DNA of 63,529 nt, counting the filler, from Neolecta irregularis DAH-3 (Eukaryota), in NCBI GenBank assembly GCA_001929475.1. It is 7 parts of 7 records of this genome, joined end to end, with 100 filler letters (N's around TTAATTAATTAA, not from the genome) between each part and the next. Parts side by side here need not be neighbours in the genome. Positions count along the whole stretch, not along the records: positions 1 to 30,589 come from LXFE01000750.1; 6 more parts are not named here. One strand, given 5' to 3'. Position 1 is the stretch's first letter, and the number at the start of each line of letters is the position of its first letter. Made by a program: the position numbers and the translations under genes. The notes under the pieces were generated by a model. That model was not told where the DNA came from. It searched no databases and saw only the letters and a program-made list of their open reading frames with translations. This document shows, piece by piece, positions 4,195-31,849 of this stretch.

Positions 4195-5080
4195 TCAAGC
4201 AAATAAAACCTCGTTTGAGAGAGGATCAATCTCCAATTTTGTTTTCATCTTCTTCACCTTGCGTTTCACCCCATCCTCCACTCGCCCACGATACCTATCA
4301 CTCTTTTGAACCTTCATCAAAGCCCGAACCTACAATTAGTCGATGTACCGTACGTAGAAGACACACCTGATTAGGACTTACAAACTCCTTGTTTTCAAAA
4401 ATAACTGGCCCCGAAAAAGATCCTTCAAGGATACATATCGGCGTCATCACGAAACGTGGTCCAATTTCAAGCAAACTCATCCCGTCCTCCTTCTCCACGA
4501 TCTGGTAATGACGAACCCAAATCTTCCCATCGGCCAAAGTAAACGAAACTGTCCGGTCAATATACTTTTTAGCCCGTTTGTGTCCTTTAGGAGTTGAAAA
4601 TACGTTCACCAAAATTTCTTTAATCACTCCCAAATATTTCGTCGAGCCTTCAAAATTCAGATCAAACGATAAAATCGCGCGAGAGCCTTTTATCGCATTG
4701 CCAATCATGTTTAACTCTTCCATTGTATGTATATTTTCCACATGAAATTTAACAGTTGGCCCCGTGTTTTCCGCTGTCAGGCAAGACCCGGCCATCCACA
4801 CGTACAAATCGCGTTTCTTCCTTCCTTCAAAATATACAATATTAGAGCATTCATGTAAATCGGCGATCTCGACTAGATGATGTAACTTTGATTTCGAGTC
4901 GAATTTGCAGTCTTTTTTTGAGTTGGGAAGCAGACTGTGAAAGTCGTTCAGTAAATGGCGGTGACGGTACGTAATTCCTCGCGATGATAGCAGCAATGTC
5001 TTTTCTTTCGTCGGAAAGGAAGGCGGAGAGTCTTCGGGTTCTGGTGAGCGGCGTTTTTGGAGATTGTAGAGGGTTGCCAT
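4195..5080 (-). CDS. BRX1: Ribosome biogenesis protein Brx1 (Brix domain)
   Basis: LLLSSRGITYRHRHL, GPTVKFHVENIHTMEEL and EIGPRFVM motifs. One intron near the 3' end gives ...DPLSNEVLFA*. Confidence 0.95.
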
Positions 5081-7865: not shown

Positions 7866-8085
7866 TGTAAGGATATACCCTTCTGGTATACCTTAAGACT
7901 CGATTTTATTCTAACCAAAGTGTGTGAACTTCATATACAGGGCATACCTCCTAAGTATGTGAACTTGGTTAGGTACACGTGATCCTACAAGACTATATAC
8001 CCCAAATATTAATGTCCGTAAATAAGATAATGTCTTCATGTGTATGGTAAAAACTATTGTTCTTACATCTAGTGTTAAGGTTACA
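7866..8085 (-). mobile_element. Solo LTR, 220 bp, with 5-bp TSD
   Basis: TGTAAG...GTTACA termini flanked by the direct repeat TCATC (7861-7865 and 8086-8090). Reverse-orientation relative of 61281-61475. Confidence 0.8.
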
Positions 8086-8818
8086 TCATCTGTAGGCTCA
8101 TTTCTCATTGGAAACACTAACCACGTCGATAATTAGTCAATCATCCTGTCAGATGTCCACGTCTCATGGGATTTCCCGCGCAGGTTCAAATCCTGCTTTG
8201 TTGCCAGAGTAACGTGAAGGTAGTTCAGGTTTATAGGGTAGAGGGGGCAAGGAAGTCTTGATAGTCTTGTTAATAGCAGCTCTGGCTGTAGAGCAATGCT
8301 CAATACCTCAGCACAAAAATCTATAAAACTGATGAGCGAGACTGAAACTGAAGCGAAGTAGACGGAAATTGCTTGCATGATGGGCAACGGAGTCATAAGA
8401 GCTGTCTCAGAGCAGGAAATCAATATGTAGGAAAAATGAGACTCAAAAGTAAGGAAAGGAAAAGTGGTACTTCCTCGTGATATACCCAGGCTCGAATGGC
8501 GCATGATCGGCCTGTAGGGCGAGCTTGGTAAATAATCAAAGAAAAGGCTTCAGACTTGACAATTTATTCTACCTAGTGATACAGAGGGACTCCATAGCTC
8601 CATATACACACTCCGCGGGACAACAAAGACATGGCTGAAGTCAACCCATGAGTCAGCCAACCACATTCCAAGTCAAGAGTGCTACCTAGGATCAATTTCC
8701 ATTAAAGGTCTCACTTTTGACCTGTGATTGAGTTGAGGACTGTTCAATTAGTAGGGTTTTTTCGACACATGGTTATCTTTATATAGCAAAATTCATAATT
8801 GTCAAGTCGATCACTAGA

Positions 8819-9296
8819 ATGTTTGTGGTTCTTTCGTCGATTGGATTGCTTTGCTTTAGTTCAGCGGTCCCAGTTCAAACCGGAACAGCTGCGGTTATCG
8901 CTGTGGATGGGAGTAATACGCAGTTCGACCGAGACTTGCCATTCATCACGATCTACAATCCAAAGAAGACAATGACAAATGAAGTTGTTGCACTGTGGAA
9001 GATTTCCAACCGCGAGGAGAAATAGACAAATTTCAAACATTCGAGAAGAATATTGATGAAAAACTTGCACATCTCGCTTGTACACTTCTCGCGGAAAGGA
9101 ATACGAGTCTCTCAAGTATCCTTTCTATCAGTTACCTGTGGACATGATTCGAGATTGGTATACCATGAAATTTGCTGAGGAACTATATAATCTTCAAGAA
9201 GAACGGAAGTTGGCATGGAATGCAGCTGTCGTCAAGGCTATTGAGATACGCGAGAAGATCAGAGAGAAAATGGCAGCAGAAGATGATAGCCAGTAG
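8819..9296 (+). pseudogene. Small secreted-protein gene, apparently frameshifted
   Basis: Signal peptide MFVVLSSIGLLCFSSA-VPV. Coding-like sequence continues across three frames (8819-9025, about 9015-9145, 9078-9296) with no obvious intron to rescue it. Confidence 0.5.
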
Positions 9297-9739
9297 GCTA
9301 AGCCCATTCCATCTTTTAAAAGTACCGGCGACATATTTGTTACTCTTGAGAACTCGGTGTTTCTCCACCTGCTAAATCCTGGTTAAATAATAACTTTCCA
9401 TTCTACAATTAATCGTTCCACTTCGGCCAATCTACGTGACTTGTAACTACCTGGAGAATCAGTGACCCTAGGTTAATAGATTTATACGCAGACTCCAGAA
9501 ATCTCATATTTATTCATGAGCAAGTTCTTTTGAAAGCAGAACGTTAAGACATCAAATGAGCTTGAACGAGACCGATAGTGTCGTATTAGACGAAAATCCT
9601 CAGTTTAGCATTTCTTTACGACACGCCTGACTTGGTTAGTAAGCGGGCTTTAACCGGAGCTAGAATATACATCGTTGCCTTTATCCAAAGGATCTCGATC
9701 GTATATTTCCACCTAACCCTCCTGAGCAGCAAGTCCGGA

Positions 9740-10260
9740 CACGGTGTTGGCAATGGGCCATGGGCTTAGCCCGGCCCATTAAAAGCCCGCGGGCTTAGCC
9801 CATGGGCCGGGCTTTCTTCTTGGCCCGGCCCATCGGCCTATGGGCCTACTTGGGCCGAAACGGGCTTTTTCACGTGATATTCAATGATACTATGCAGCCC
9901 TTCTCCTCCCATGTCTCCCTAACCGCCTTTCTACCGGCCTCGCCTGCCCGCCTTGCCAGTCCATCTCGCCCGCCTCTTCCATCTCACCCTCCTCACGCTC
10001 TTCTCGCCCGCCTCTCCTGTCTGTCACTCCTGCCTCTCCCGCCCGACTCGAGCAGCAGTGCACGGCCAGGGCGAGTAGCGCAAAGGCGACGCTGCGCCAG
10101 GCTGCCACCGAAGAGTACAGCCGTGGGTTCGCGGGCAGCTGGCGGTGAGCAGCCAGCGTCCACAGCAGCAGCACGGCCAGCTCCGCGCCCGCAATAGCTG
10201 CCGCTGCTCCAAACTCCGCCGTGTGCAGCAGGGGCGGCCATGCAAGCCCTGGCAGCGACG
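9740..10260 (+). mobile_element. End of a hAT-like DNA transposon with GGGCC/GGCCC subterminal repeats
   Basis: Begins CGGTGTTGGCAATGGGCC, followed by many ATGGGCC/GGCCCAT/GGGCTT repeats in both orientations and then a GC-rich interior. Related stubs occur at 5950-5989, 33031-33050 and 61480-61510. Confidence 0.55.
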
Positions 10261-10264
10261 TAAT

Positions 10265-11360
10265 CGACCATCACAGATCACATGATTTCTATCTCGAGGT
10301 TATGGATGCGCACGACAATGCCTGTTGATACCATACTTTTGCCATTCTTTTACCTTGCTTGAAATGGGAATGTGTCGAATGTTTGCCACATCTGAGGCAA
10401 ACTGGAACTCAAATCCTTCTGGTTCCGAGATTGAAGTGCAGTTATATGTATAAGAGCTTGCAAGTAATAATAGATTTCTGATAACTAGGACGCGTCAGCC
10501 AGAACAAGTTCATGACATTACTGCAAGGTTTTCTCACAATGATGATATGCCTGAAGAAGATTGGGCTATTGAGATTCAAACTAGATATGGGCTATTGGAA
10601 GGATATCCCGATCAAAAAAGGTTGGATCAAGATGTTCCAAGGGTCTGCAACATTGCAATTCATGGAAATCCACCAATGTCAGTAAATATTGGACGAGAAC
10701 TTTTGGACCTAACCCTAAATTCATGGGCAGAGCATTCGACCAACTCAGACATCTTATCGGCCAACTCACACGTTTTATCAGAAGGGGTTCACACTATTGT
10801 ATTGACTTTTCTCGAGATATTCAGCAAGAGTGCTGATCAAGATGTGACCGCTTTATATGATCCAACCAAGACGATGCTTTTCATTCAAAGTAAAGACTGG
10901 TACCTGCTTATCTCTTCATTTGGCCCTGGACAATACGAAATATTACAGCACACTAAATCAGTAAACAATCTTATCCAACATACGATGGTAGCAAACAACC
11001 TTGAAATCGACAATGACCAGAAGATTCGTGCTTTGAAATCTTTTCAAGAAGCAGTGGTGGTGTTGATCCGCATACTAAGATTCCAGATTATGCTGACGAA
11101 GGGAATGGCGTTTTTACTCTCGAACATGACGAGCAATCGATTGCAACAGTCGTATTGACCACTGTTGCAAACGCGCTCCTCCAACCTGTACCTTTAGATA
11201 ACCCTTCGTTTCCGTTGGACCAGGACATAATATTTTATCGCGATATCGTAACAGCAGTGCTCTCTAGTGTGTATGAAAAGCTGGTCGGTTCCACAAAGTT
11301 TGTTACAAAAGGCCCAAACTGGTGCTTTAACTGACACAACAAAATATCGGCAGAGGAAAT
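10265..11360 (+). pseudogene. Copy 1 of the PAN/apple-like secreted family (5'-truncated pseudogene)
   Basis: Clear homology to 11844-13112 and 16147-17448. The signal-peptide region is missing next to the transposon end, the family intron donor GTAAG is changed to ATAAG, and the frame is lost around 11060. Confidence 0.8.
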
Positions 11361-11843
11361 TCATATTGGGGTTCGCGTTCATCTTTAATCAGTGTCCCAA
11401 ACACCCCATCCCATACACGGGGGGGTATGGGGTGGATGGGTGGTGGAGTTTGTATTTCCACACTTGAGAACAGACCGCAATAAATATCATAGCTCAAACT
11501 ATTACTGCAACATGGATTTAATCAACTGTACTTCTTACCCTTCTCCACTTCTTTTAGGCTAATCTATTTCTAGAAAGGATATCCTTCTCCATACCATGCT
11601 CATAAGCACTCATGTGTTCCCACAATATCAGGCTTAAGGCAGTTGCGACTATCTGTTATCATTTTCTTTGTTGAACTAAAGATTCTTTATATGATTGCAG
11701 GTGTTATTGCCGCCGATTCAAGGAGTTGGAGACTCGGATGAAAATTTTAAGTTGGAAATTTACGGGTATTCGGAGCACTGAAACAAATTCCCTATACAAA
11801 CCCCACAATTCACCTGGGTCGCCCTAGTTTTAATTTATCCAAC

Positions 11844-13112
11844 ATGATGTTTTCAAAACTCTTCTGTTTGATCACAATTTGTCCTCTGACTTGCATGGCA
11901 TCAGATCTCGACTATTTCAAAGAGATTTCAAGTGGTTTTTCCAAAGTCACTGTCGGCCCTCCGAAATTATCACAGTCACGTCTCATGGATATGAATCAGG
12001 ACGAAGCAATGGAAGAATGCGCGCGACAATGCCGGTTGGTGGAATACTTTTGCCATTCTTTTGCTGTGCTCAGAGATTCGAATGGATTAGGATGTATAAT
12101 GTTTACTTCATCTGAGGCAGAATCCATCTCTATCCCTTTTAATCACGAGTTTGAACTCTTGGCATTATATGAGTAAGAGCTTGCAAGTAATGATATATTT
12201 CTGATAACTAGGATACGTCAGCCAGAACGACTCCAAAACCTTGTTGCAAGGTTTTCTCACAATAATCAAAAACCTGCAAGAGATTGGGCAAGTGAGATCC
12301 TAACTAAATATGGGATATTATCGCTGGCAACGTCTCTCGAACAAAAACAATTAGATCAACATGTTCTAATGGTCTGCAAAACTGCCATACATGGCGAACC
12401 ACCAGTGACGAAAGATTTTAGACAAACAATTTCTGGGAAACTCACTGCGGAACAACACCCTCTTTCGAACAAAGAAATTATGGACATTGTAAAATCATGG
12501 GCACAGCTTTCGAGTAATTCAGAAACATTTTCCGAAGGATTCGACACTATTGTATTAACATTTCTCGCGATATTCAGCAAGAATGCTGATCAAGATGCGA
12601 TCCCTTTTTACGATCCAACCCACAAGATGCTTTTCATTCAAAGTAAAGACTTGTACCTGCTTGTCGTTTCATTCGGCCCTGACCGTTACGAAATATTACG
12701 GCACTTTAAATCATTAAACAATCTTATCCAAACTACGATAACAGGAAACAATAAAATCGACGATGTCCAGAAGAATCATGCTTTGGAGTTATTTAAAAAG
12801 ATCGTGACTCATGTTGATCAGCATGCTACTCTGCCTTATCCTCCAAAAAGGTATATGGCTACTGCCGATAATAACGACGAGCAATTGATTGCAGCAGCGG
12901 TATTGACTACTGTAACAAAGGCACTCCTTCCACCTCTATCTGGTGTAACCCTAATTAAATTGTATGCGGAAGAGGCAATCTTTTATCGCGATCTTGTAAC
13001 AGCAGTGCTCTCTAGCATATATGGAAAGATTCAAGCTAGTTCGTTCCAAAAGAGTTTAGCCGGTAAGACCAAAACTGGCGCTTTCCTTGACATTATCATC
13101 AATTGTAAGTGA
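11844..13112 (+). CDS. Secreted protein with N-terminal PAN/apple-like domain and unknown C-terminal domain (copy 2)
   Basis: Signal peptide and the motif EECARQCRLVEYFCHSFAV...GC. A 39-nt intron (12173-12211) joins ORFs 11844-12176 and 12369-13112 in frame. Confidence 0.8.
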
Positions 13113-13512
13113 TACTTGATTCAAAGCGAAAGTCAAACGCAGCTGGGTTTGTAACAGTTTTTGTATGCAAGATAATAGTAGGATTCTGCTAGTAATTAAA
13201 TTTACGTTTGTGATCTATGATGAATTGAACGTCTAGCGCACCTAGATTTATACATAAACTTGAGAATTACGATAACCAATAGTAGAACAGAGGGAAAAGT
13301 GAAAGCAATATAATCAAACGTGAAAAAAGAGTCAGAGTAGCCAGCTGGTGTTATGTAGTCTATCCAATTAGTGGGGTATTGACATGTAATATCCCAGAGT
13401 ATGAAGTAGTAAACTGTGGAGGTGATAGGAGGTCAAGAGATGAAATTGACTGTCGCATTTGGCAATACTCGTAAGTAGTACTGCTTTGTGTCTTTAGAAA
13501 AAATAATATATA

Positions 13513-13830
13513 TCGTCAAACCTGGATATAACGAATGTGGCTTGGCAACGTTTCCAGTTCGTTATAACGAGGATTCGTTGTATGGAGATGGCCAAATAGA
13601 AAATAAACAAGATCCAAGCAAATCCAAACCAAATGAATCGGAGAGGAAAATAACTTTATTCTACCATCTATATCTGGATGATGATGTACATGCCATTTTT
13701 GGCTACATCTCCCTTGACTATGAGAGAAAGTCCCAACATCATGTCTTCTATTACAACATAACCAGATGATATCCAATGAATTCGCTTCAGAATCTCTTGT
13801 TTGGATTCAAAAAGTGGTCATCCTGGGGGC
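13513..13830 (+). mobile_element. pogo/Tigger-like non-autonomous element fragment
   Basis: Starts GTCAAACCTGGATATAACGAA, a pogo-type TIR matching the end of 15889-16041. 13612-13828 recurs at 39981-40206. Confidence 0.65.
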
Positions 13831-15888
13831 CGGGGCCTTAGTCTGGGTAATTGCAAGCATGTGACAAGATTGATTCCCTTGAGCAGTTGAAACAAAGTAG
13901 TTCCACTGTAACACAAACAGATGTAAGTATTGAAGCCCAACTGCCCAGATATGAATAAGACAAAAGTTATATTGTTTCTAGCTGAAGGATTGGTGAACTT
14001 TTGGGACATACATAGTATTGGTGAACTTGGCTAGGTCTGGACCGCCAAACTATATCCTTCCGTATTGATAAGTCAGGGGTATACGTCTACAACAGATGAC
14101 GAGCAGCAATACCTCAAGAAAGGAGCTTAATTAACCCAAGAGCAACATTTCCATATAACATAGCAGATTTAGAGACTGCAAGGATACGTGCTCTTTGATA
14201 GAGCATTGATAAAGTTTTAACTTACTAAGGTAGGACTAGTTAGTGCTTGGCAAAAAAACCGGTCAAGAGATTGTTAGCACACAGGTGCCAATCAGTGTCT
14301 ACGGTGAGTTTTGACTGCTTTGACGAAAGGTAGGTTCTTGGTGGAAATGGGGTTTAAGCTTTGTTGTGCGAGGCGGGGTCTTGTAGCGAGGAATCAAGTT
14401 ATCAAAGAAAATATTTGACTAGCTATTCAGACAGAATCCTCGTCTATATAAAAGAAACCTTCGCAGCCCTTTTATCCTATCCGCAGAACACACGCTATGC
14501 CAAGTGGCTCAGAAAAACAAAGATGATAAAGTAAAAATAAAATATAAGAACTTCTCTAACCTAGACCCAGTGAGGCAACCGGCCGCATTTCCCCTATAGG
14601 AGAGACCGATGGCGAGCCAGACCGATCCAATGACCTAGTTCTTCAAAGTTAAAATGAAGAAACGCGTAGTGGGTTTTGGCTGACTGCGTGCTGATGACGT
14701 CTAAAAATGCCGCGCAAGATAGTTGATGTAAAATGATTTGACGATATGGGATAGTGATGGGAGTTTGGAAGGAGCGGGAGGGATAACTGTTGGGGTAGAT
14801 AGGGATGCTGGTAGAGGGTGGAGGTGAGGGCGGAGATGAGGTTTGTCGCGGTAAAGGGAAAATGAAGAAATGCGTGCGTGTTGTTCATGTTACTTGCGAC
14901 AAGATGATATGTTACAGTAGCTTTTCTTTATGAATTAAATACTTGTTGGAAGCATATGCATGCTTCTCGAGTCTACAGAAACCCTAGAAATACAGTTGTA
15001 TCAAAAATTCAAAACCCCGGGATAACCCCTCCATTGTCCTATATCCATGCAAAAACATTTGAGGCAAAATAATCCAAGGTTTGTGCCCATAGCGATGCGG
15101 TTTTCACTTGATGCACCATGATTGTATCTTTCGCAAAGTCTGCCTTGCAGCTGAGTCCACTGGCGGGATGGTCGTTGACACGAGACCCCAGGTTGAGGGG
15201 TTGCAGCAGGTGAGCAAGTTGGAGCCAGGAAAGGCACTGCTGCGGGATAGCATCGCATCGGGCGAACCAACTTGAACTATCGCGAAAGTTGAGATCGAAG
15301 TGTTGGCAGGAATAGGCTGTTACTTTTTCTCTTTTCCAGAGAATTATGTTATATGACGATTTTCTTCTAATTTAAGATTTTCAGAGGATGGGGTGACGGT
15401 TGTGATATTTCCGCAGCGTGTTTGCGTTTTAAATTTTTGGTCATCTGGTTTGAGCTGATTAATGGGAAGTGTATAAAGTGAGGAGGATCAAAGCGCACGT
15501 GTGAGGGGACTTGCAGTCGAGACGATGAAGAGATACATACTCGACTCGATAGTTAATAGCGTGCATTGATCTGAAGAATGGTTGTTTGCGGATTTGGGAG
15601 AGCGAGATCGGGTTTCTAAGCGAGGGGGAGCAGTGCGAGGGCGAAACGGCTGAGGACCGGGCAAAAGGTCAGGTAGAGTTCGGCAGAGGCAGAGCAGGCG
15701 TTGGCAGCAGCAGGCGGCGATTCAGATGGAGCAGCGGCGATTCAAGTACCCTTATAAGGAACAATCGAGTCAAGTTGCATAATCTCAGGATTAACTACTG
15801 GTGATAAATAGCTGAAACTGAAACGGACCAAAAATAGAGAAGTGGCTCACGGGCGCAGCAGCAGAACTCTCTCGGAGGGTAAAACCTA

Positions 15889-16041
15889 TACAAACCTGGC
15901 TATAGGGAACCCCCTTATAACGAATCCAACTGGCTTCCAAGATTGATTTATATGGGGTATTTTGCTATCACGATATAACGAATCCGCCTTATAGCGGACT
16001 GAGCACGCTGCGAAGCCACAATCGTTATAACCATTCGACTA
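15889..16041. mobile_element. pogo/Tigger-like MITE, about 150 bp
   Basis: The left end CAAACCTGGCTATAGGGAACC matches the reverse complement of 40490-40576. The right end matches the reverse complement of 13514-13597. TATAACGAA motifs recur. Confidence 0.65.
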
Positions 16042-16146
16042 TCTCGAAACATTGAGACTAGAAAGTAAGAGAAACGGAAAACATTTTCATGCAAATTCCC
16101 AATATAACCCTACAATCAGGGTCGCCCTAGTCTCGACTTATCCAAC

Positions 16147-17448
16147 ATGATGTTTCCGAAGCTTTTCTGTTTGAACATGCTTTGTACTCTGACTTGCATG
16201 GCATCAGATCTCGACTATTTCAAAGAGATTTCGGGTGGCTTTTTTGGAGTCACTATAAGCAATCCGAAATCATTACACTCAAATCTCATGGCTATGAAAA
16301 CGGACCAAGCAATAGCAGATTGCGCGCAACAATGCCGGTTGGCGCAATACTTTTGCCATTCTTTTGCCGTGATCAGAAATTCGATTAGACATTCGGAATG
16401 TCTAAGGTTTACCGCATCTGAGGCTGAATTGATCTTTAAACCTTTTAAATACTTTGAAGAATACTTTGAAGTCTTGGCATTATATGTGTAGGAGCTTGCA
16501 TGTAATGATGGATTTCTGATAACTAGGACACTTCACCCAGAAAAAGTTGAAGACGTTGCTGCAAGGTTTTCTCACAATGATGATGTTCCTGAAGGAGATT
16601 GGGCTCGTGAGATTCTAACTAAATATGGGATGTCATCGGGAACAATATCTCGCGAACAATTACAGTTCGATCAAGATGTTCTAATGATCTGCAAAACTGC
16701 CATACATGGCGAACCACCAGTAACGGAAAACTTTAGAAAAACGATTTCTGAGGAACTGGCTTCCCACCATCACCCTCTTTCGAACAAAGAAATTATGGAC
16801 ACTGTAAAATCATGGGCACAGCTTTCGAGTAATTCACAAACCTTTTCGGAAGGATTTGACACAATTGTGTTGACTTTTCTCGCGATATTCAGCAAGAATG
16901 CTGTTCGAGATGTGGTCACTTTGTACGATCCAACCAACAAGATGCTTTTCATTCAAAGTAAAGACTTGTACCTGCTGATCGTTTCATTCGGCCCTGACCA
17001 TTACGAGATACTAAAGCACACTAAATCTGGAAAAGATCTTATCCAATTGACCATAGCAGCAAGCAAATTTCATGTCGACGATGAACAGAAGAATGATGCT
17101 TTGGGGCTATTTAAAAAAGCTATGGCTCGTGTTGATCCGCATGCTACAATTCCTTATCCTCCAACAAGGAGTGTGGTTAATTACACCAATGACGAGCAAT
17201 GGGTTGCAACCGTCGCACTGGTCTCTGTTGCAAAGGCACTCCTTGTACCTATATATTTCACAATGTCTAAGTCGGACGCGGAGGTAATCTTTTATCGCGA
17301 TCTTGTAACAGCAGTGCTCTCTAGCATATATGGAAAGATTCAAGCTGGTCCGTTCCAAAAGAGTTTGTTCCAAAAGGCCAAAACTGGCGCCTTGACTGAC
17401 ACAACGGTACGTGATAAAAACGATGGTCAGAAGCAGGTGTTTTTGTAA
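16147..17448 (+). CDS. Secreted protein with PAN/apple-like and unknown domains (copy 3)
   Basis: Paralog of copy 2 with the same 39-nt intron (16488-16526), and conserved upstream and 3' flanks. Confidence 0.8.
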
Positions 17449-17558
17449 CAGTTTTATATGCAAGATAGTAGCAGGCTTGATCTAATAATCAAGTTTACTT
17501 TTGTAATCTATGATGAATTGTTAATGAGTGATTATGAGATATCTGTACTCTGAGGTCC

Positions 17559-17736
17559 TGTAAGTGGTTCGCTTGGGGTACAAATATGACTAGGTTTAAT
17601 TGTCTAACCTATGTTATATGAACCTAACCCAGGCTAGGTATATGTGGTTCCCTTCTTTATATACCCTCTTGTTTAATGCCGTCAATATCACTAAGCCACT
17701 TGCCGTATTGGTAAGAATATACCCTGTATCCTTGCA
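17559..17736 (+). mobile_element. Decayed solo LTR (same family as 61281-61475)
   Basis: TGTAAG...CTTGCA ends. Shares CTTTATATACC, GCCACTTGC and TTGGTAAGA with 61281-61475. No TSD found. Confidence 0.5.
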
Positions 17737-17825
17737 GATGGAACGGAAGACAATTAGTTATCAAGTAATGTTCAGCTTAGAGAGGATGAAGTATAGGTAA
17801 GAGATATACTAGTCTCATGAATCAA

Positions 17826-18235
17826 TCGACTGCCCGCCGGAGGGTCTCCGGCGGGCGGGCGGGTCAAAACGACCTGCCGGTGGGTGGGCGGATGGTCTTT
17901 TTGACAGTTTATATAGGTGCGATGCCAAATTCACTAGATAACCAAAATTGCTAATATAAAACGATTTCTATCTGGCCATTTCTTTCGTTGGTGAAGTATG
18001 CTTCACTTACTCTCACAAAGTTTACGTCGAATCATCGTGGATGTCACGTGATCAGTGACTAATCTTGCGAGCTTAACTTCGAGCAAATTGCATTCAGTTC
18101 ACAGTTGAACAACCAACCAACGTATTCAAACGAAACAAGCACTGTCGGGATCAGAATTTAAAGGCGAAAATAATGGTCTGCCAAGAAATTCAATACAAGA
18201 AAGGCAAAGGGGGGACCTTTGAACAACATCAATCA
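17826..18235. repeat. Dispersed repeat of about 400 bp (non-autonomous TE), with an inverted copy at 31160-31790
   Basis: 17915-18235 aligns to the reverse complement of about 31160-31487, and the CCGCCGG/GGCGGG end resembles 31730-31790. Confidence 0.75.
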
Positions 18236-18368
18236 CATGGAAGAAATATTTCCAAACCCCCATACAACCAAACCAACCTAACAGCCTGCCAGAGCACTCT
18301 TTTGGATCTCTTGGTGGGACACACTGCTGGAAATTTGGCATGGGTGGCGTCGGGCTAGACAAAATATT

Positions 18369-18459
18369 TGGAGGCACCGGGAATCGAACCCGGAACCTTC
18401 TCCAACTCAGGATCGAAACTCAATGCTAAGAAGATGTTATACCATTAAACCATGCCCCC
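18369..18459 (-). tRNA. tRNA-Ala(AGC) with an intron of about 19 nt
   Basis: GGGGGCA/TGCCTCC-A acceptor stem with G3:U70, anticodon AGC, GGTTCGATTCC T-arm. Confidence 0.92.
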
Positions 18460-18715
18460 GATTGAATGACAGAGAGAAGTGTATGACACTATTGATCACG
18501 CATTGTAATCTGCATGCGGCAGTTTTTTGGACAAAATCCCTCCCTCTTATGTCATTGTTATCGTAGCCTCAGAATCCGCGACATTCTACCGGATTTGGAA
18601 ATCATCGAAGTTGTTTGTGCGGGCAGCATAATATCAGCTCAAAAAATGTCCATTTATACCAGCCTAATGTTTTGTTATAATGCTATCTCTCGAGGAAACA
18701 ATCCAGATTAAATAT

Positions 18716-18778
18716 AGAGGAATATTTTCGAGCTATACCGTCTTCGAGCTATACCGTATAGCTCGAAAATATTCCTCT
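18716..18778. repeat. Perfect 23-bp inverted repeat spanning the F-box stop codon
   Basis: AGAGGAATATTTTCGAGCTATAC (18716-18738) pairs with GTATAGCTCGAAAATATTCCTCT (18756-18778). Confidence 0.9.
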
Positions 18779-19438
18779 TATTAATGCTGTTGAAAATTTC
18801 CCTGTTCTTCCATCCAATTTTATCTTTCTTTCAATCTCGGAAAGATCCAGCTCTTGATGTGATTCCAGTAGATGGACAATATGCTTGAAGCCATACCCCA
18901 TTATATCATCATACAGCTCGTGATCGCTGATCCACCTTCCTACTCGATCCCAAGGAACAGCATTTGGATCATTGATTTTGAATAACTTTCTCCAGAGTGC
19001 AAAACGAACAGGTCGGAGCAATTGGCCTGGTAAATGGAAATTAGGCTGCGCGGATCCATCGTGAACCCAAACGATATTGAACATTTCCATGAATCTCCAC
19101 CCAACGAAGAAGTCAAAGTCAAATTCGGGATAAGTTGTTGTAAATTCCTTGAAACGATGTAAATATCCTTCGACATGTTCGAGATAGCCATAATAAGCCC
19201 ATGTACTTTCGAATACAGGTGGTTTCAGCGTTCGTTCAACTTGATCCGCGCTGTCTATATGCTGAATGGTATTACGCGCGAGTTTATCTTCATGATGATT
19301 AACAACCCTATTCGCGCTTCGACATGTAAGACGCAGATTTAGCAACGTGTCCATTGAGCAAAATTTATATATCATCAATTCCACTTCGGTAGGAAGGTCT
19401 GCAGGAAATAGAGAAATAAAATCATCCTTTAATGACAT
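18749..19438 (-). CDS. F-box protein, intronless, with an unrecognised C-terminus
   Basis: N-terminal LPTEVELMIYKFCSMDTLLNLRLTCRSANRVV fits the F-box pattern. Confidence 0.75.
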   Translation of the reverse strand: MSLKDDFISLFPADLPTEVELMIYKFCSMDTLLNLRLTCRSANRVVNHHEDKLARNTIQHIDSADQVERTLKPPVFESTWAYYGYLEHVEGYLHRFKEFTTTYPEFDFDFFVGWRFMEMFNIVWVHDGSAQPNFHLPGQLLRPVRFALWRKLFKINDPNAVPWDRVGRWISDHELYDDIMGYGFKHIVHLLESHQELDLSEIERKIKLDGRTGKFSTALIRGIFSSYTV

Positions 19439-19750
19439 GTGGGCCGCGCAATCTAATTGAAAAGCAATCCAAGGGAAAGGAAGAGAAATAGTCGGTTGTA
19501 ATAGGTGTCAAGCTGAAATAAAAAAGCAAGATTGTCGGTGGTACAGTGTATGACAATTTTGACTTGGGCATCACCAAAAACAATTGTCAAACAAAATGAA
19601 TAGTACCAATTCATACGGTCGGAACGAAGAAATGAAGAACGCCTCTCTTAGCTAGTCCACAAAGAAGATCACGCCAACACCTCCTAAAGATGACACATAA
19701 ACTCGAACTAACAATCGATACCAAAAGGAAAAACTCCACCATGCTGAGCC

Positions 19751-20389
19751 CTACTTTTCGAACCCACACCAAGTACAGTAGATAACTTCCTTGTGCATGA
19801 CTTTTCCAACAAGCCATCTACGCAGTGAGTTATGAGATGATATGGTGAACACACCCAGCACCAAAGCCGAAGCCAACAAGGACGGCTGCGCCAAGAACCA
19901 AGACCCAAGTCAAGGTTCGATCTGTTTTTTTCTCGTGTCGTGGTCGATCATAGGTTGGAGGCGAGGATGTGAGACGAAGAGAATGGATTGACGCCGGTCT
20001 GCTATGGACTGGACGATACAACAAGGTAGAAAGGCTACGGCATTAATGAAACATCTTGCAAAGGCGGAAAGGAGATAAAAGCTAGAAATGGGAAATACCT
20101 TTGAGCAAGGACTTGATCGCTGACACTTGCCGCTTTCTGAACAACCGGTTTTTCGGAAATTTCTGGACTGGGGGCGACAACGACTTCGTTCTCAGTAGAT
20201 TCATCTACTTCAGTGTCATCAAATTCGGAAGTTGAGGTAGTGCTATAAGCAGGACTGTTTGTGTCGTCCTGAACAGCGATCCAGGAATCTACACGTCATG
20301 TTAGACATATGCATACAAGGGGGAAAATCAAGCCGCAGCGGTATAAACGTTGCGGATAAGCAAAACGAATGAGAATATGTACCCTCCAT
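19751..20389 (-). CDS. Tail-anchored protein with an N-terminal AIM/LIR; Atg43-like mitophagy receptor candidate (4 exons)
   Basis: Spliced product: MEDSWIAVQDD...DQVLAQSLSTLL...TLTWVLVLGAAVLVGFGFGAGWLVGKVM...FEK*. All three introns are GT-AG and in frame. Confidence 0.6.
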
Positions 20390-20810
20390 GTTGTATTGTT
20401 GGTACTGCGCATAATGCTGCATGGTGGAAGCGATGTGTCGTTACAACAAGGGGAGCTTGGGTGGAGGGAGGGATCTGCTGACGCGACCTCCCTTATCGCT
20501 GCTGCACTCTCAACAACAATCCGTTACACCTCAAATGAACACGTTTAAAACTAAAAACTAAGGTGAAACTAATAGGATCCAGCAATATACCACAGCGCGA
20601 CTCTCGACTAATAAGAAGACATAGGAAGAACATAAGTGAAACAAATATTTTCCAAGCTTTCGCTGTAGAAGAAAACATGGAAAGAACGATAATAGTGCCG
20701 CCGCCATAAACTAATGCTAATAGGCGGCTGTCAAAATTGGAGCCAGAGAAAATAAAATTCCCATCATGTGTTGTGTGAATCCAAGCAACGCCTTTTAGTC
20801 AAAACAAAGA

Positions 20811-21927
20811 TTAGTGTTCCATTGGATCAGATGCAATTATTTGGGAGTGTCCCAACTTTTGCGCACAGTGTTGGTTGGCGTTGAGTTGAGCGCGAAGAGA
20901 TTGAAGTTCTAGTTGCATCTGAGTCATTTGATTTGATATTTTTAGATTCTCGTCTTTGAGCTGGTTGATATAGTCATTTGCTAGGATTGTCAAATATTCA
21001 CCACTCGAAACCCTTACCCATGTGCAAGGCATCAGCTTTGCTAGCTTTGCTTGCTTGTTCCCCGGGCAAATTGGCCTTTAGTTGTTCAAAGGAATCTTTC
21101 ATGACCTTGCGTCGTTTCCGCTCAGCGATTTTATGACTAACGCGAAGCTCCGGGCTTCGACTGTATGGGCCTTCTTTGCCGCTGATTTCTTGGACAGAAT
21201 GGAGAATCAATGGTGGGGAGTAAGGAGCACCGGGGCTTGTGTACTTTGCGCTACCTTCTCCATAAACAGGATCTGGAAACGCATAGGGGAATCCTGGTGT
21301 AGGGTCCTGATCATGTGGGTTAGGTACCCTCTGCCCGTTCGGGATGGTAGGATGGGCAATCGTAATGGGCCGACCAGGTGGGATTGGTGGTGCACGACCA
21401 ATTGCAGCTGGCGTTTGACCCTTATGGATTGACAACCCTTGAAAACCTTGTGTAGGGGTGCTAGCTGAATATCTTCGTAGAGAGTTTGAAGAATGTTGTG
21501 GGCGTATCCTTTCGGATGTGAGAGAAACAGGAAGCGACGGATCATAGGCAGCCAAACTGACTGAATCACGCGAGTTTCTACGCGATGACAATATGGAAAT
21601 ATCGTCCTCGCTGACGCGAATGCTGGTGCCTGGAGAGGAAGGGGAGTACATTGAATCGCCGGCGAACTGAAAAGGACGACTGATCCCATCTAGAGGAGGC
21701 AATTGTCTGCTATCGAGGGAGCTTGTGCCGGTACGAGGAGGAGTCAGCCGGGGCGGGTACTTGTAGGAGGGCTGAGGGGAATTGTCGTCCTCGACGGCTA
21801 TGAATCAAGACCAAGACCAATGCAGATACATACGGGGAAGATTGAGCATCCACTGCTCCTTGTAGCTGCCAACCTGGGGGTGCCTTCCGGTCAAGGTCTG
21901 GATAGTAGGCAGCTTGATAGCAGACAT
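20811..21927 (-). CDS. bHLH transcription factor (DevR/Esc1-like), 3 exons
   Basis: [21 protein letters not shown] basic helix; helix 2 and zipper follow an intron ([12 protein letters not shown]). The upstream exon [10 protein letters not shown] joins in frame. Confidence 0.85.
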
Positions 21928-22395
21928 GGAAGTCGGGCCGGATCCTGGGAAACTGGAAGAGGGAGAACAGCTGGACACTGGTGGTTATAGAATATTGTGC
22001 GTGCAGGAAACGTGGTTCAGGCCGCAGAACGTGTCCAATTAGATTGAGTGACTTCCGCATGGCTGCTAATGTCCAGGGGCAATTTAAGGCCAACATGTCC
22101 AATGGCATCCCCGCAGCCTGGATTAGCAGCAGCAGGGAGAACTAGCAGGGCAAAACACCATACAGCTATCCACTAGAACATAGGAGACTGCGGCAGTCTT
22201 GAAGATTCCATTGGAGACCATTAGACATGAATACAAACACAATTCACTCAAGACAACAGTAGACATTGAGCAGAAACACCACCATGGGAAAGCTGTTCTG
22301 CAGTCTGGCGGGTACCTGCGACCGGCGGGTTCATCTTGATGTGATTGCCATGGCGCATCTCCTTTTTCACATTCCCGCCATCCAGAGTGTCTGCC

Positions 22396-24353
22396 CTACC
22401 ACTGCCTCTGCCCGTCATAGACATGGTATCCCTGATGCTTCTTCCACAAGTTGCACCACGCCTTCATGCTGTCTCGGCTCCTGGCACTATGCACATTGAC
22501 AGTGGGAACTATTCTACCCCATTCCAGTGAACAGCAGAAACACGTCAACTCTCGGAAACTCTGACCAGTCAGCATCTCTTGATCCCCATCCAAGATACCG
22601 AATGCTCGCTGTATGGCACCCCATACACGGTAACGGTTGCCGAAGACCCCCGCTGTGGCTTTAAATCACCAATCCCATACGGGGTTTTCCACTTCTCAAT
22701 GATTGTTTCTACACTTGGATTTTCTGCACGCCTTTTTGAACTCGTAAAAGTCCATCCGGTAGGACGGAATGCCACAATTCTGGAAAAATGTGGCTTGAAT
22801 TGTTCGAGATACTCCAAACTTGTCTAAAACATCGATCAACCCTGCAGGACTAATTAAACTAAAAAATAATAATACCTCGGCCCGAATTTCTCTTAAAGTA
22901 GTTATGTGGACACTTGCTTCGATGGGATTGTCAGTGATAAGATTCAACAGTTCCGGGTCCTCCAGACAAGCACAAATCCGTCTTTTATAAAGTGGGGCAA
23001 AGATCTTTGATCTCATTGCTCTAGCAATACCTGGACGTGAGAACTATTCACATTGTGAGAATACCCATGACAATACGCTCTTTTCCAATTGAGTATGTCC
23101 CTACAATGACTAAAAGTCGACCTCTACCATTTCGACTTGCTGTCTTTTGACTCACAAATTTTCCAATACCTGCTTCGCGTCTGGCAATTTCCACAGGATC
23201 ATCATCGTCCACGATTTCCTTGGATAGACTTAAGCATATTTGCGAGGTCGCAGAAATAACATCATCTTGTGCAGGAAAAGCGTGTTTTGAGCTTTCTATC
23301 AGCAAGGGGAAAACCCTGATTATATAACCTTAAATAGGTCGTATCAAGATATATTGTATCAAACCATTTCCCTTTAATAGCAGGATGTAAAACCTGCAGT
23401 GGATTCGCTCGAAAATCGCCACAATGAAGATATCGTACCCACCGTCCCTGGACTTGCTTTTCAAATAAAAATAAAACGCTCCCTGGACAACTAGACTTTT
23501 TAAAATCAAAAAAGAAAGGCTGAGAGGAAAAACCTACTGGTTTGCGCCAATGCAAGTAACTCCAATTTGTTCAATCCAAATAGTTTTATCCATGGGTAGC
23601 CGAACCACAAATGCCTCTGCAACTCTCAATTGTTGCAGGACTAGATTCGCAGTGATATCACTACAATATATTTTTCCATGGGTCCAGGAACTTGATAAGC
23701 CACCGTAATGATCGCTGTGAAAATGCGAGAGAAAGTATCCATCGATATCCGGTATTTTTCCAAATTTGAAGGCGTCAACGGCAATTCGCATATGTGGCAT
23801 GATCTTGTAAAAAGGGCACGAGCGAAGATACGAGCGCTTGCTGCGATCAGCGCGAGACCTCTCTGTTGTAAATTGCCACTGCTTATCTTCAAAGCGATTT
23901 AGCATGATTTTAGTGAATGCTGATGGTATATTAATGGGTGGTAAAAACTCTGGAGATTGGGATTTTACAGGTTCGAGATGATCGAGACATTGATTGACGT
24001 GGATTAGAGCTTCCTTGAGATTTAGCCGTTTAGATAATTACAGAGAATACAGAATCTGAGAGCCTCGAAAAGGGATAAGAACATATCGGACAAGATGGGG
24101 CAGAAATATCTCGTTGGGACAGGAGCTCGGGATCTTGGTAAAATTCACTCTCCGCAATAGAGCATTCAGGCGAATTATGGTCTTGAAATAGAGGAGTCTC
24201 TTTAGACTTTACAATCTCTTCAATGATGGTGGCTTCATCGGCTATTTTCTCAATAGCTTCGGGATCCGGTTTCTTGGAAAAGAAATGCAGTATCGAGGTA
24301 CTCGATTTTAACGCATCCGACACTGATATTCCCCGAGATGACTTTCGCGGCAT
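22396..24353 (-). CDS. PSO2: DNA interstrand cross-link repair nuclease Pso2/Snm1 (MBL/beta-CASP)
   Basis: FLSHFHSDHYGGL, LHCGDFRA, YLDTTY and VPYSEHS motifs plus an N-terminal CPIC zinc finger, over several exons. Confidence 0.93.
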
Positions 24354-24554
24354 AAAGTGGTAGAAGATGGGTGATCAAGATATTTGATTTTGAACCCCGA
24401 TCTCATGAGATCTCAAACGACGTTACAGTTATAAACATATTTTTCATGTCGACTATTCCAATTTGATTCTCAGTTATAGATAATGTGTTTCAAAGTATTA
24501 TCAACAAATGAAATTTACAATGACGTAGATTTAACAAGTCCTTCGTTCCAATTC

Positions 24555-25202
24555 ATGGCCATGCTTCCGCTCGCCGCCTATATACTGTCGCAACCAGCAC
24601 TTTCAAGTCTGCTTTTATTCGCTCTGGATAGACGGCTTATATGTAGTTCTTCTACCTGTAGGATCTGGATTAGCAGTTGGATACCTGACGAAGCCGTATG
24701 TCAGGGAGATATATGTCAAAGAACGCTTCCCGCCCGGAAAACTGCCGGCCTGGGTTTTTGGGCCTGTTTGGACAGTATGACAAGACATTGAAGCATTGAG
24801 TGGACAAGTAGGGATTGTATGTTGCTATGGGATATGCATCGCACCTATTTTATGCCACGGCACTCGCTATACGAAGCCCCCTTCTCGTCGTATGATCTCG
24901 CTAATAACCTTTTTTGAACAATGCAGGCTGGAACGACCGCTTATTTTAGCTCTCTGGTCTTGAATTTGGCTTATATGCCTCTGACATTCGGCATCAACTC
25001 GCCTACAGCTGGCCTCGTCGATCTATTACTCTTGCTAGGAAACGTTTTATATATAACAAACACCTTTTCAAAAGTGGAAAAGAAGGCTGCTGGACTGATG
25101 ATTCCGTACACAGCTTGGTTATGTTATGCTAGCTATTTAAATGCTGGACAAGTATATTATCGCAGACGAAAAACGATTAAAGGTAAAAGTAAGGAAACTT
25201 GA
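24555..25202 (+). CDS. TspO/MBR family translocator protein
   Basis: Hydrophobic multi-exon protein with a PAWVFGPVWT segment, LNLAYMPLTFG and AAGLMIPYTAWLCYASYLN. Confidence 0.85.
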
Positions 25203-25417
25203 GAATCTCAATCGAGGACCTGGTAAACAAATGTAGTATGATTACTAGAGATAAGTATTTTCTTTTATTAATATATCATATCATTCTCAAACACAATCTA
25301 AACCAATAACAAACCCCTCCAGAACTTCTATATAAAAGACAACCTTATATTGCAAACTCCTCCAAAATCATACCATCGATAAGATATTTCAAAAACTCCA
25401 AGGGAAAAGGGAACGTG

Positions 25418-25976
25418 CTAAATTGCATAGTTTTGGTCCTGTAGGCCTATACACATTGACGAAGCCTCGTCGAGCATTTTCTTTGAGACGTCGAGTTCTT
25501 TGACTTCTTCGGCAGTGAGGAATCTACCACCGGGGCCGCGAGGTCGCCTCATGGCGTGTTTATGACGGGATTCGTGGAGGTATGGCTAGGATATATTAGC
25601 TTGCAGGTCTTTAAGATCGCCGTGCCTTTCTCCCCTGTGCGGCTTTAGCCTGCTTTATCCTTGATTCGCGGCGTTTGATGATGCGGTGGTACTGCTTGGC
25701 GTTGACGTACAGCGGTTCGTCATCGGCGGTCGGAGCAGGCGGCAGCGACGCTGGAGGAATTGCAGGAAACGGAGCCATTTGCAGCTGGTGATCCATGGTA
25801 TTCGCGCTGATTGGCTGAAACAAGCAATAGGTGTTTTGGTGGAGGCGAGATTCGCGCTTTCTCAAACTGATCGGCTGCTGGATGTCTATTGGCTGGTCAC
25901 CTGCAGCAAACGGCAGGGTGGACTGGCGAATGAAGGAGGATATGTTTGGGAAACACTCCGTCGCAGTGGGCAACAT
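25418..25976 (-). CDS. HAP2: CCAAT-binding factor subunit Hap2/HapB (NF-YA)
   Basis: [16 protein letters not shown] and [24 protein letters not shown], joined through a GC-AG intron (25586-25625). The 5' end is uncertain. Confidence 0.92.
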
Positions 25977-27234
25977 ATTCTTATAAGATTGTTTCTCCAG
26001 CTATAATCGGCCAGAGCAAACAACCGCTGAAACTATTTTGCTACCGACATCCGAGCAGAACGCCGGGCGGTCCACCTCGCGGCTACGCGGATCATGGGAA
26101 CATTGGTGCAGCATCGCAAACCTGACTGCGCGGTATAACCGACAGACCCGCAGGCAAAATTCTTTCGAGAAGACACGAAGACGCAGGTATGGCAATTCCT
26201 ACACCGACTGTTTGGGAGAAACATGCTCTAGTTCGGCTCATAAGATCCCGTTAGCGTCCATGGTTCGCTCCACCTAGGGTCTGCTTGTCTAACACCCCAA
26301 ACAGGTTACCCTGTAATATACATGAACCTGATATCCAAGAAGAAGATTCTCAAGACGACCGCTCAATAGGCCTCGGCACCAGTGGAAATCTAGGGAGAAA
26401 GCCAATCGTGAGGTTATCGCTGTTAACGGCGCAGATACACGCATCCCGTCAGACTTGCCTTTTGAAGCCATCATATTGATCAACGATGTTCCGTAGAACG
26501 CTCGAAGAGAGAAGCATCAGAAGTATCTGTAAGTCATCATCCGGGAACGTCTAGGTCTTAGGGATATAGTGCTAGTTCATGACATGACTTTTATATTGTT
26601 TTCCTTGACAAACTGTTTGAATGCTGCGTCTTCGGATTTGTACTTTTCCAACAGTACCTCAATAGTCTTTAAAAGCTGTGGAGATCAGCTGTCTGCAAGA
26701 ATGAGGACGGCACATTCTTATGCAGGTCCTCCAGCATGGGCAGAACCTCGCGTATCGATTTTTCAACCAGCACCCCATTGATCATGTGGAAGCATTTCCT
26801 CGGAGGGTCGAGTGGCCTCAGAGTCTCGATAACGAGTCTGGCAGGGGATCAACAGACGCAGATGAGAGATGAAGGGGCTACTTGTGCTCTTCTGCTTCCG
26901 ACTCGAGTTTGCTTACGCGGGCGATCAACTTTTGGATGCGGGATTTATGCTGCGAGTACATGGCTTGGAGTTCTGTAGATCAGCGAATCGAATCGAGGGC
27001 GGATCTACCATCTGCAGAGCGGTGAGATTGGGGCATGGTAGCGAACGAGGCGGTGAAAGGACGCGGCATGCGGGAAAAGTGGCGAGTTTGGCGGTGGCGG
27101 TGCCCTGTGGCGGCGCCGTCGGTGCAATCAGACTAGCACAAGCGATCTCCAACACTCGTTTCCACCACCAAAAGTGCGCATTGGCGATCTTCAACGGTCT
27201 CAAAGGCGCAAACAAAACCGCTGCTAACATATCC

Positions 27235-28392
27235 ATGGCGCTGTCCCAGTTGTTCTCCAGACACCGCAACAGCATTCCGCTAGTTTCCGCTTCCGCGGAG
27301 ACCGTGCGCTTCTTACGACCCTCTGCCGCTCGTATCCGTCTAAAACAGTGTCTGATTTGTGCCATGCTCGTCGTTGCTCTACTCCGTGTCTTTGGCTTCT
27401 TGTCTACACATTCTCGCAGCAGCAAGTATGTCATTGTGCTAAGCAGCAACACGGGCGGCGGTGTCATGGGCTGGAAAGGGCCTCAGGAGTGGCAAATAGA
27501 AAAGGAGAGCATACAAAACAAGAAACAGTACGCAAAGCGCCATGGTATCGGCCCAATTCTCCAACTTTGTCTAATGCTCTCGGCACCAGGCTACGACCTC
27601 GTTGTCAGGGACATGAAGACTCAAAAACGATATCAACACGTGCTTCCTCGGCCTTGCGCCTATACTAAACGTCTATAGGAATGGAGAGAGTCTTGGGAAA
27701 AAGTGGATGCCATTCAGGCTACTATGAAGCAATTCCCCAAGGCAGAGTGGTTTTGGTGGCTTGATCTCGTATGTTCCCATGCGATATCACACGCTCATCT
27801 CATCTTATAAGAACACAATTATTATGGAGCCTCAAATATCGCTTGAGTCACATATTTTCGATCATCTGGGAGAAGTAGCCACGCAAGCGCCCCCTCACAA
27901 CCCTCTGGGCCTCCAGTTATCACCCCTCACCAATCGCTCCGGAGAAATCAACATGTTGGTCACGCAAGATTGCAGCGGATTTTCGCTTGGGAGTTTCTTC
28001 ATTCGGCGAAGCGAATGGACCGAGTGGTTGTTGGACGTTTGGTGGAATCCAGTCTTTTACGAACAAATGCACGCCAGGTGGGAGCATAATGAACAAGATG
28101 CTCTGGTATATCTATCCTGTTTGACATATACTTATCGCCACAGCAACATATGTATGTTGAAATGCCTCATGTTCAAGATTCTCTATATTTTCTCCCACAA
28201 CGAACGATCAATTCATTTCCCTCTGGGGCGTGTTCAGACTACTGGGGAGATAAACGATTCTTCTACTTTGAGAATGAGCGCGATTTTCTTGTTAATATGG
28301 CAGGCTGCGAATACGGGCGAAACTGTTTTGAAGAAATGAGAGTCTACAGGGAACTGAGCCGAAAACATCACAAGTGGTGGAAATTTCGTTGA
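27235..28392 (+). CDS. MNN10: GT34 alpha-1,6-mannosyltransferase, Mnn10-like (multi-exon)
   Basis: NTGGGVMGWKGPQEWQIEKESIQNKKQYAKRHG, EWRESWEKVD, WFWWLD, EHNEQDAL and NMAGCEYGRNC. Confidence 0.88.
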
Positions 28393-31790: not shown

Positions 31791-31849
31791 GGTTGTTGAC
31801 CCACCACCACCTTCCCCAGAGTATATTACGCCCATTTCACACTGCAAGA

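Follow-up and report, generated by a model that had tools for sequence, protein, structure and literature searches.

What kind of proteins are encoded by a tandem set of diverging genes lying between repeated stretches of DNA in the fungus Neolecta irregularis DAH-3, and what keeps these genes open? The locus lies in a 63,529-nucleotide stretch of assembly GCA_001929475.1 (hereafter the window), made of seven parts of seven records joined by filler, with positions 1 to 30,589 taken from LXFE01000750.1. An original prediction, made from the sequence alone, had described three same-strand paralogues, two of them intact, in which a signal peptide and a PAN/apple-like module precede a C-terminal domain that could not be assigned. 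Here, we provide evidence that positions 10300-17448 hold two intact genes and one 5′-truncated, frameshifted pseudogene. The explanation that we favor, with a probability of about 0.55, is that they are three tandem paralogues of a very rare fungal family that would be exported, act as non-catalytic binders and be born and lost locally, with strong selection on the reading frame and on some blocks of sequence and weak selection on many other segments.

Comparison of positions 9000-19000 with the whole window by self-BLAST, together with the gene models, bears out the predicted number and orientation of the copies. Copies 2 and 3 are 79.4% identical over 1459 columns (11784-13227 versus 16092-17520), and copy 1 is 71.7% identical to copy 3 and 70.7% identical to copy 2. 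As read from the sequence, copy 2 begins with the ATG at 11844 and encodes 409 residues, copy 3 begins with the ATG at 16147 and encodes 420 residues, and each has two exons; their C-terminal parts measure 299 and 306 residues, respectively. The start of the family had been placed at 10265 and has to be moved, as the homology of copy 1 begins near 10300, at about codon 57 of exon 1. Copy 1 has neither start codon nor signal peptide and lacks ~37 residues at the beginning of the mature part; the donor of its relic intron is altered, and out-of-frame gaps are present (1 nt at 11057, causing a frameshift, and 7 nt plus 1 nt at 11277-11296). It is a pseudogene, and a GC-rich (61%) repeat adjoins its 5′ break. 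Searches with the spliced proteins (tblastn) found no fourth copy within the window, the sole additional match being an 11-residue tail at 30587-30555.

Both intact copies are held open by selection on the reading frame. All six indels that separate them in the coding region up to position 13092 are multiples of three (3, 9, 3, 3, 3 and 3 nt), and those of the flanks measure 1, 3, 2, 1, 4, 8, 1 and 7 nt. About 4.5% of random single-base changes yield a stop codon, which amounts to about 10.7 stops expected from the roughly 238 substitutions between the two copies, and none is present (probability of none, about 2e-5). Identity stands at 0.81 in the exons and 0.90 in the intron; farther out than some 60 nt on the upstream side and 115 nt on the downstream side, it is about 0.6.

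The two intact copies also share the 39-nt intron that had been proposed for them, with 35 of its 39 bases identical. Both introns run from GT to AG, have a CTGAT branch-like site 7-8 nt before the AG and contain an in-frame stop. The most informative comparison is with P0001, a single continuous protein of 367 residues recovered in the searches described below: residues 53-409 of spliced copy 2 align with residues 4-367 of P0001 at 26% identity (E = 2e-28), with the same C-terminal end and zero gap at the exon junction. Elsewhere in the window, one GT34 paralogue requires a 39-nt GT..AG segment to be colinear with its intron-less sister, and intron candidates of 35-40 nt with donor, branch and acceptor are found at the ends of the open reading frames (ORFs) of the anthranilate synthase, SNARE and Brix genes. 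Six candidates measure 36-39 nt, compared with 2.1 expected from shuffles, and two of the six are the family's own introns. The gapless junction against P0001 and the similar short intron candidates elsewhere in the window make the splice model of copies 2 and 3 credible, and introns in this genome seem to be unusually short. The candidates at the ORF ends of housekeeping genes, which measure 35-40 nt and have a donor, a CTRAY branch site and an acceptor, lie at 27640-27680 and, on the minus strand, at 60430-60469, 59173-59207, 28663-28698 and 4330-4366.

The N-terminal part of the proteins carries the features that would suit an extracellular role. The first 19 residues include a basic residue, a hydrophobic core (Kyte-Doolittle 1.6-2.3) and the residues CMA followed by SD, and both reading of the sequence and hydropathy support a signal peptide, by which the product would be exported. 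The module of about 90 residues that comes next has four cysteines in the mature part with the spacing C-x3-C-x6-C-x13/14-C, followed by HSF, and this four-cysteine spacing is invariant in copies 1 to 3. Three weak but concordant lines support a PAN/apple-like fold for this module, as originally proposed. The first is a match of copy 2 to the Pfam models PAN_2 (18.4 bits against a cut-off of 21.1, E = 0.0023) and PAN_1 (15.0 bits against 21.4, E = 0.023), which does not reach the gathering score, a cut-off that is statistical and not structural; copy 3 gave no Pfam PAN row at E <= 10. The second is a fold search with a model of the module, whose best rows were mostly PAN/apple domains; as in the PAN/apple fold, one helix packs on an antiparallel β-sheet in the model. 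Foldseek against the PDB returned no match at E <= 0.001 for the module model, the N domain of HGF (N/NK1) being among the rows at TM 0.45-0.50, and a PDB sequence search with the module matched nothing. The third line comes from the ESM Atlas, where the feature neighbors are PAN_1 clusters at 0.93 and 0.92 (recognition 3115). The spacing of the cysteines fits two nested disulfides, an outer 1-4 and an inner 2-3, a pairing that we infer from the sequence. P0001 has lost both Cys 1 and Cys 4 and kept Cys 2 and Cys 3, a joint loss that is expected if the disulfides link 1-4 and 2-3, as in PAN domains.

Public protein collections contain almost nothing of this family. When 1.84 billion cluster representatives were searched with a profile built from the three copies, three proteins came out at E <= 0.001, of which two are remote relatives: P0001 (E = 1.9e-29) and P0002, a fragment of 158 residues (E = 4.9e-6). 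The third, P0003 (1103 residues with TPR-like repeats), matched in six short stretches (E = 2.1e-5) and was dropped as a repeat artifact. Word-index searches of a collection of 5.8 billion clusters returned nothing for the C-terminal domain or for exon 1 (length setting 'longer'), and a profile search of the same collection returned only P0001, which was already in the profile. We also rejected the single locus given by a metagenome scan (L001), a bacterial contig on which a chance IAIHANPP peptide lies opposite a minus-strand ORF of 332 residues that, by eye, is bacterial and fructose-bisphosphatase-like. P0002 opens with a methionine almost exactly at the point where exon 2 of the window genes starts, and it extends as far as the conserved MLVVSF strand. 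Its gene call may have been started downstream of an intron in the equivalent place, or the protein may be a form that has no PAN module.

Within the genome, the family may be larger than the window reveals. Extra contigs with consistent differences cover the gene bodies (for example, 10850-10994, with one or two contigs and 11 listed differing places), and single hybrid contigs join 10757>12535, 12672>17075, 16366>12166 and 17169>11219, each at roughly single-copy depth. These variant and hybrid contigs fit further paralogues elsewhere in the genome, the alternative being assembly chimeras across identical runs. Together with the one decayed copy, they lend support to the idea that the family evolves by birth and death.

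We therefore propose, as one joint reading at the probability given above, that the predicted signal peptide would lead to export of the protein, and that the PAN module, with its ~90 residues and two putative nested disulfides, would bind its ligand, a glycan or a protein, either extracellularly or on a surface. The C-terminal α/β domain would provide a second, block-wise conserved surface for interaction or scaffolding, and the proteins would act by binding, not catalysis. The family may expand and contract through local duplication beside repeats, and the near-identical patches of DNA would fit gene conversion. Two points weigh against this proposal: the overall dN/dS between the two intact copies, 0.81, is near neutral, and the binding partners are purely ones that we infer.

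Among the alternatives, the most probable is that diversifying selection acts on a family of effectors or recognition proteins for host interaction, whose PAN module would be hypervariable and would aim a conserved payload. A protein that looks secreted, tandem duplicates beside repeats with one dead copy, a very narrow distribution and the invariant mature N-terminus DLDYFKEIS all agree with it. The pairwise Nei-Gojobori estimates, which compare one pair only (copies 2 and 3), lean the same way: dN/dS is 0.81 for the whole protein (dS 0.266, dN 0.216), 0.31 for the signal peptide (dS 0.423, dN 0.130), 1.31 for the mature N module (dS 0.189, dN 0.247) and 0.75 for the C-terminal domain (dS 0.282, dN 0.212), with the highest single 30-codon windows at 1.97. 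However, with two sequences, neither the excess of the N module over 1 (Fisher p = 0.59) nor its difference from the C-terminal domain (p = 0.21) is significant, and hypervariable stretches occur in the C-terminal domain as well (48-53% identity in windows 271-360). The predicted division into a variable binding module and a more conserved payload is thus not borne out, nor are heavily substituted positions between the cysteines: across the cysteine core (residues 59-84), copies 2 and 3 show 65% identity, the value found for the whole protein, and the core is therefore no more substituted than the rest. In addition, proteins of 409-420 residues with four or five cysteines in the mature part are unlike the usual small, cysteine-rich effector. 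Taken as a whole, we consider this explanation unlikely.

The pattern of divergence is better described in terms of blocks. Amino-acid changes are clustered, the observed variance being reached in 1 of 5000 shuffles, and synonymous changes are less so (39 of 5000). Runs of identical DNA measure 61, 46, 40, 34, 34 and 31 nt, in agreement with the claim that some blocks are invariant even at the DNA level; the longest (12977-13037) covers the FYRDLVTAVLSSIYGKIQA block, and the 46-nt run (11884-11929) covers the end of the signal peptide and DLDYFKEIS. Given the clustered changes and the identical runs, conserved blocks alternate with hypervariable stretches in both domains. In some blocks dS is very low (0.05 in codons 361-390), which fits patchy gene conversion and nucleotide-level constraint equally well; DLDYFKEIS itself may serve as a signal for sorting or processing, or it may mark a conversion tract. 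Repeat-induced point mutation (RIP) was rejected as the driver of the fast divergence, with 135 transitions to 124 transversions, and with indices that are negative for RIP (TpA/ApT at 0.59-0.65 and (CpA+TpG)/(ApC+GpT) at 1.39-1.42).

The C-terminal domain of about 300 residues had been called unassignable, and by sequence this holds. It has no credible match in Pfam, NCBIfam (far-sub-threshold rows only) or the PDB; a PDB search with its profile gave just an RNA-polymerase subunit row, which is insignificant (E = 0.024), and the ESM Atlas gave no usable match. An alignment of five sequences keeps A..H..PP, an L.FL helix, DP...LF...D...L..S and F(Y/H)RDL.TAV.SS. By structure, the model lies nearest to the Ulp1/SENP fold of the CE clan, at low confidence. 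The AlphaFold2 model is poor overall (predicted local distance difference test, pLDDT, 53), with a core at residues 130-230 (pLDDT ~80) modeled as a helix, five strands and a helix. Foldseek against the PDB gave SENP1 and Ulp1 rows at E 0.05-0.07 with probabilities up to 0.92, and none at E <= 0.001. In the VIA wide fold comparison, the best 10 rows all belong to the CE clan (Ulp1 6.5, XopD 6.4, SENP3 6.0, SENP5 5.9, SnCE1 5.9, NEDP1 5.8, SENP7 5.7, SENP1 5.5, Chaetomium Ulp1 5.2 and NopD 5.2) and cover model residues 43-271, which correspond to the entire catalytic domain of the targets. Three observations speak against such a fold: Z is below 8, the level that the tool calls common, with root-mean-square deviations of 3.9-6.8; all CE rows depend on low-confidence parts of the model; and the trimmed core matches generic α/β sandwiches (Med17C 5.1, frataxin/CyaY 4.0-4.6). 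We put the odds that the domain truly has a CE-clan-type fold at about even.

Whatever its fold, this domain cannot be a standard CE peptidase, because no conserved cysteine follows the sheet. Neither copy 3 nor P0001 has a cysteine C-terminal to the sheet, and copy 2 has only the non-conserved, penultimate Cys 408; a His-Asp-Cys triad with its cysteine at the start of the post-sheet helix was not found. The one conserved cysteine precedes the sheet and is a serine in P0002, and among polar residues, invariance is limited to two Asp, two Ser and one His that lies ahead of the sheet. Moreover, PF02902 (Peptidase C48) gave no row at E <= 10 for copies 1 to 3, P0001 or P0002. It is tempting to speculate that the domain descends from an Ulp1/SENP-type peptidase that no longer has its nucleophile and has acquired both a signal peptide and a PAN module, in which case the protein would be a secreted, dead SUMO-protease serving as a decoy or binder of ubiquitin-like proteins or their proteases, outside the fungus or in partner cells. 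We regard this scenario as quite improbable.

The surroundings of the genes bear on a further explanation, equally improbable, in which the copies are passengers or components of a mobile or repeated element that spread with the flanking repeats and do not serve the fungus. The sequencing runs listed as containing the stretch are two DNA runs from one study (shares 0.84 and 0.45), and none is RNA. Contig depth, a sum over all contigs, was read in bins over 8000-20000 and was used only to call repeats, as it is not copy number; bins that look single-copy stand at about 400-430 in X1. Depth reaches 20-70 times the single-copy level at 9604-10405, 14416-14816 (~8,000) and 17624-18425. The 13.2-16.0 kb spacer lies mostly at 1.5-9 times that level (13228-16091 overall, 1.5-19 times), and 13612-13828 matches 39981-40206 by self-BLAST. 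The highly repeated DNA on either side of the cluster, the repetition of the 3′ flank at 30453-30589, the extra variant and hybrid contigs over the gene bodies in the source sample and the modeled resemblance to the CE clan would all suit a mobile element, and Ulp1-like domains are carried by some eukaryotic transposons. However, a signal peptide and a PAN module are not expected on transposon proteins, the catalytic cysteine is absent, and the reading frame is selected in both copies. Furthermore, no transposase, reverse transcriptase or other transposable-element domain was detected by Pfam in the 21 ORFs tested (8.7-18.6 kb) or in the family, and the 1.44-kb unit is flanked neither by terminal inverted repeats nor by long direct ones. 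The block had been described as rich in transposable elements; it is repeat-rich by contig depth, and this latter term is preferable given the absence of such domains and of terminal repeats.

It is less probable still that the copies are decaying relics or non-gene open frames left by a recent segmental duplication that is drifting neutrally. The overall dN/dS, the one clearly dead copy and the fact that no window protein was returned from the 5.8-billion-cluster collection are compatible with decay, but the in-frame indels, the missing stops, the significant clustering of changes, the conserved splice signals and the retention of the same blocks in distant relatives at 26% identity argue against it. 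Least probable of all is an active secreted, Ulp1-like cysteine peptidase of the CE clan, which has the modeled fold in its favor and against it the lack of a C48 profile match and of any conserved cysteine C-terminal to the central sheet, the sole conserved one being N-terminal and a serine in P0002.

Our preferred reading, that of exported, non-catalytic binders, can be set against known systems. PAN/apple modules are typically extracellular and bind proteins or carbohydrates. Like those of HGF N, the plasminogen N-terminus, the apples of factor XI and prekallikrein, the apicomplexan MIC4 apple and MANEC, the module described here falls in the range of ~70-90 residues, has a C-x3-C helix on an antiparallel sheet in its model and four core cysteines spaced for two nested disulfides, and finds its best structural and ESM neighbors among them. 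Unlike them, the family has no outer apple-type disulfide, its Pfam scores are below the cut-off (copy 2) or absent (copy 3), the relative P0001 is missing one cysteine pair, and the fusion to this C-terminal domain was found in no search that we made. In contrast to Ulp1, SENP and NEDP1 and to the bacterial CE-clan effectors XopD, NopD, SseL and SnCE1, the family has no conserved His-Asp-Cys triad, post-sheet cysteine or profile match, and its model is of low confidence; it also carries a predicted signal peptide, whereas Ulp1/SENP are intracellular. With its predicted signal peptide, a tandem arrangement that includes a pseudogene, repeats on the flanks, fast protein divergence and few database relatives, the family recalls the lineage-specific tandem secreted families (candidate effectors) of repeat-rich fungal DNA, from which these proteins differ in being 409-420 residues long, cysteine-poor and built of two folded domains, with housekeeping neighbors and no RIP signature. 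WSC domains have eight cysteines. Compared with the fungal WSC/PAN modules on copper-radical oxidases and the Wsc1 sensor, the partner domain here is neither an oxidase nor a membrane anchor. The listings and abstract openings of the literature on fungal secreted PAN/apple proteins and CE-clan effectors report no such architecture, a weak basis for calling it unpublished.

The cluster is placed among ordinary genes and not in a gene desert. The window encodes Brix, three GMA12/MNN10-type GT34 proteins, a syntaxin/SNARE, IMP dehydrogenase, anthranilate synthase, and WD40, F-box, HLH and protein kinase genes, a content that marks its source as fungal. The coordinates of the cluster and its flanks are collected in the table.

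Table. Features of the paralogue cluster and the adjoining repeats, in window positions.
Feature	Position	Strand	Basis
GC-rich repeat (GC 0.611) abutting the truncated end of copy 1	9604..10299	.	Depth 22,000-28,000 (bins to 10405); ORFs without Pfam domain
Copy 1, pseudogene, 5′-truncated, with relic intron at ~10448-10489 with altered donor	10300..11340	+	
Copy 2, 5′ flank shared with copy 3 (promoter-proximal or 5′ untranslated region)	11784..11843	+	Edge of self-BLAST match; identity 0.59 farther upstream
Copy 2, predicted signal peptide, 19 residues, cleavage after CMA	11844..11900	+	Hydrophobic N-terminus, judged by eye
Copy 2, PAN/apple-like module, remainder of exon 1, Cys at residues 59, 63, 70 and 84	11901..12172	+	Pfam, fold search, ESM neighbors
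Copy 2, predicted intron, 39 nt, in frame, contains TAA	12173..12211	+	GT..AG, CTGAT branch-like site
Copy 2, exon 2, C-terminal ~300-residue domain and stop (13110-13112)	12212..13112	+	
Copy 2, 3′ flank, shared with copy 3 and with minus-strand 30453-30589	13113..13227	+	Self-BLAST
Spacer between copies 2 and 3, repeated DNA	13228..16091	.	Contig depth; 11 ORFs without Pfam match
Copy 3, 5′ flank shared with copy 2	16092..16146	+	Self-BLAST
Copy 3, exon 1, predicted signal peptide (16147-16203) and PAN-like module (16204-16487)	16147..16487	+	Read from sequence
Copy 3, predicted intron, 39 nt, contains TAG	16488..16526	+	Read from sequence
Copy 3, exon 2, C-terminal domain; last ~20 residues unlike copy 2 beyond a 7-nt indel	16527..17448	+	
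Copy 3, 3′ flank shared with copy 2	17449..17520	+	Self-BLAST
Repeat downstream of copy 3	17624..18368	.	Depth 12,000-29,000 (bins to 18425); 17915-18222 matches minus-strand 31488-31182

Several other observations concern the repeats and the neighboring genes. The upstream repeat has imperfect palindromes, all of them short, at 9755-9826, and at 9960-10015 it has an 18-nt CT-rich tandem array. In or beside the deepest stretch (18025-18425, ~29,000) lies an intron-containing tRNA-Ala(AGC) of 91 nt (18369-18459, minus strand; Rfam tRNA, 54.4 bits), which may belong to a tRNA gene present in many copies or may be a repeat that derives from a tRNA. On the minus strand, 30398-30589 matches the 3′ flank that copies 2 and 3 share, at 79-83% identity, and 31182-31488 matches the downstream repeat at 17915-18222 (83%); both lie 13 kb off in the window, on the opposite strand and beside GT34 genes, and they are either relics of the 3′ end of another member or a repeat that bounds the duplication unit. 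Two GT34 paralogues (26866-28339 and 31640-32902, both on the plus strand) are 3-5 kb apart and ~29-30% identical, one intron-less and one split. A 26-nt inverted repeat (96%) with an 11-nt loop at 18716-18778, at the 3′ end of the minus-strand F-box gene, may be a terminator-like hairpin or a small palindromic insertion. Lastly, GC content peaks at 58001-60000 (0.59 versus 0.44 for the window), in the anthranilate synthase region, with overlapping long ORFs on both strands.

Collectively, our findings describe a lineage-restricted family, predicted to be secreted and built on a divergent PAN module, whose domain combination and C-terminal family are absent from the libraries searched. Without expression, localization or a partner, it would be one among many uncharacterized secreted fungal families. 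If expressed, it would represent a new architecture that joins a signal peptide and a PAN/apple module to a 300-residue domain that is either Ulp1-like without its cysteine or wholly new. Should the descent from a SUMO-protease prove true, the family would be to eukaryotes, without catalysis, what the CE-clan effectors XopD, NopD and SseL are to bacteria. The locus, which has one dead copy beside the two intact ones and likely more elsewhere in the genome, offers a compact test case for how lineage-restricted secreted proteins diversify and for whether fungi turn peptidase folds into binders that work outside the cell.

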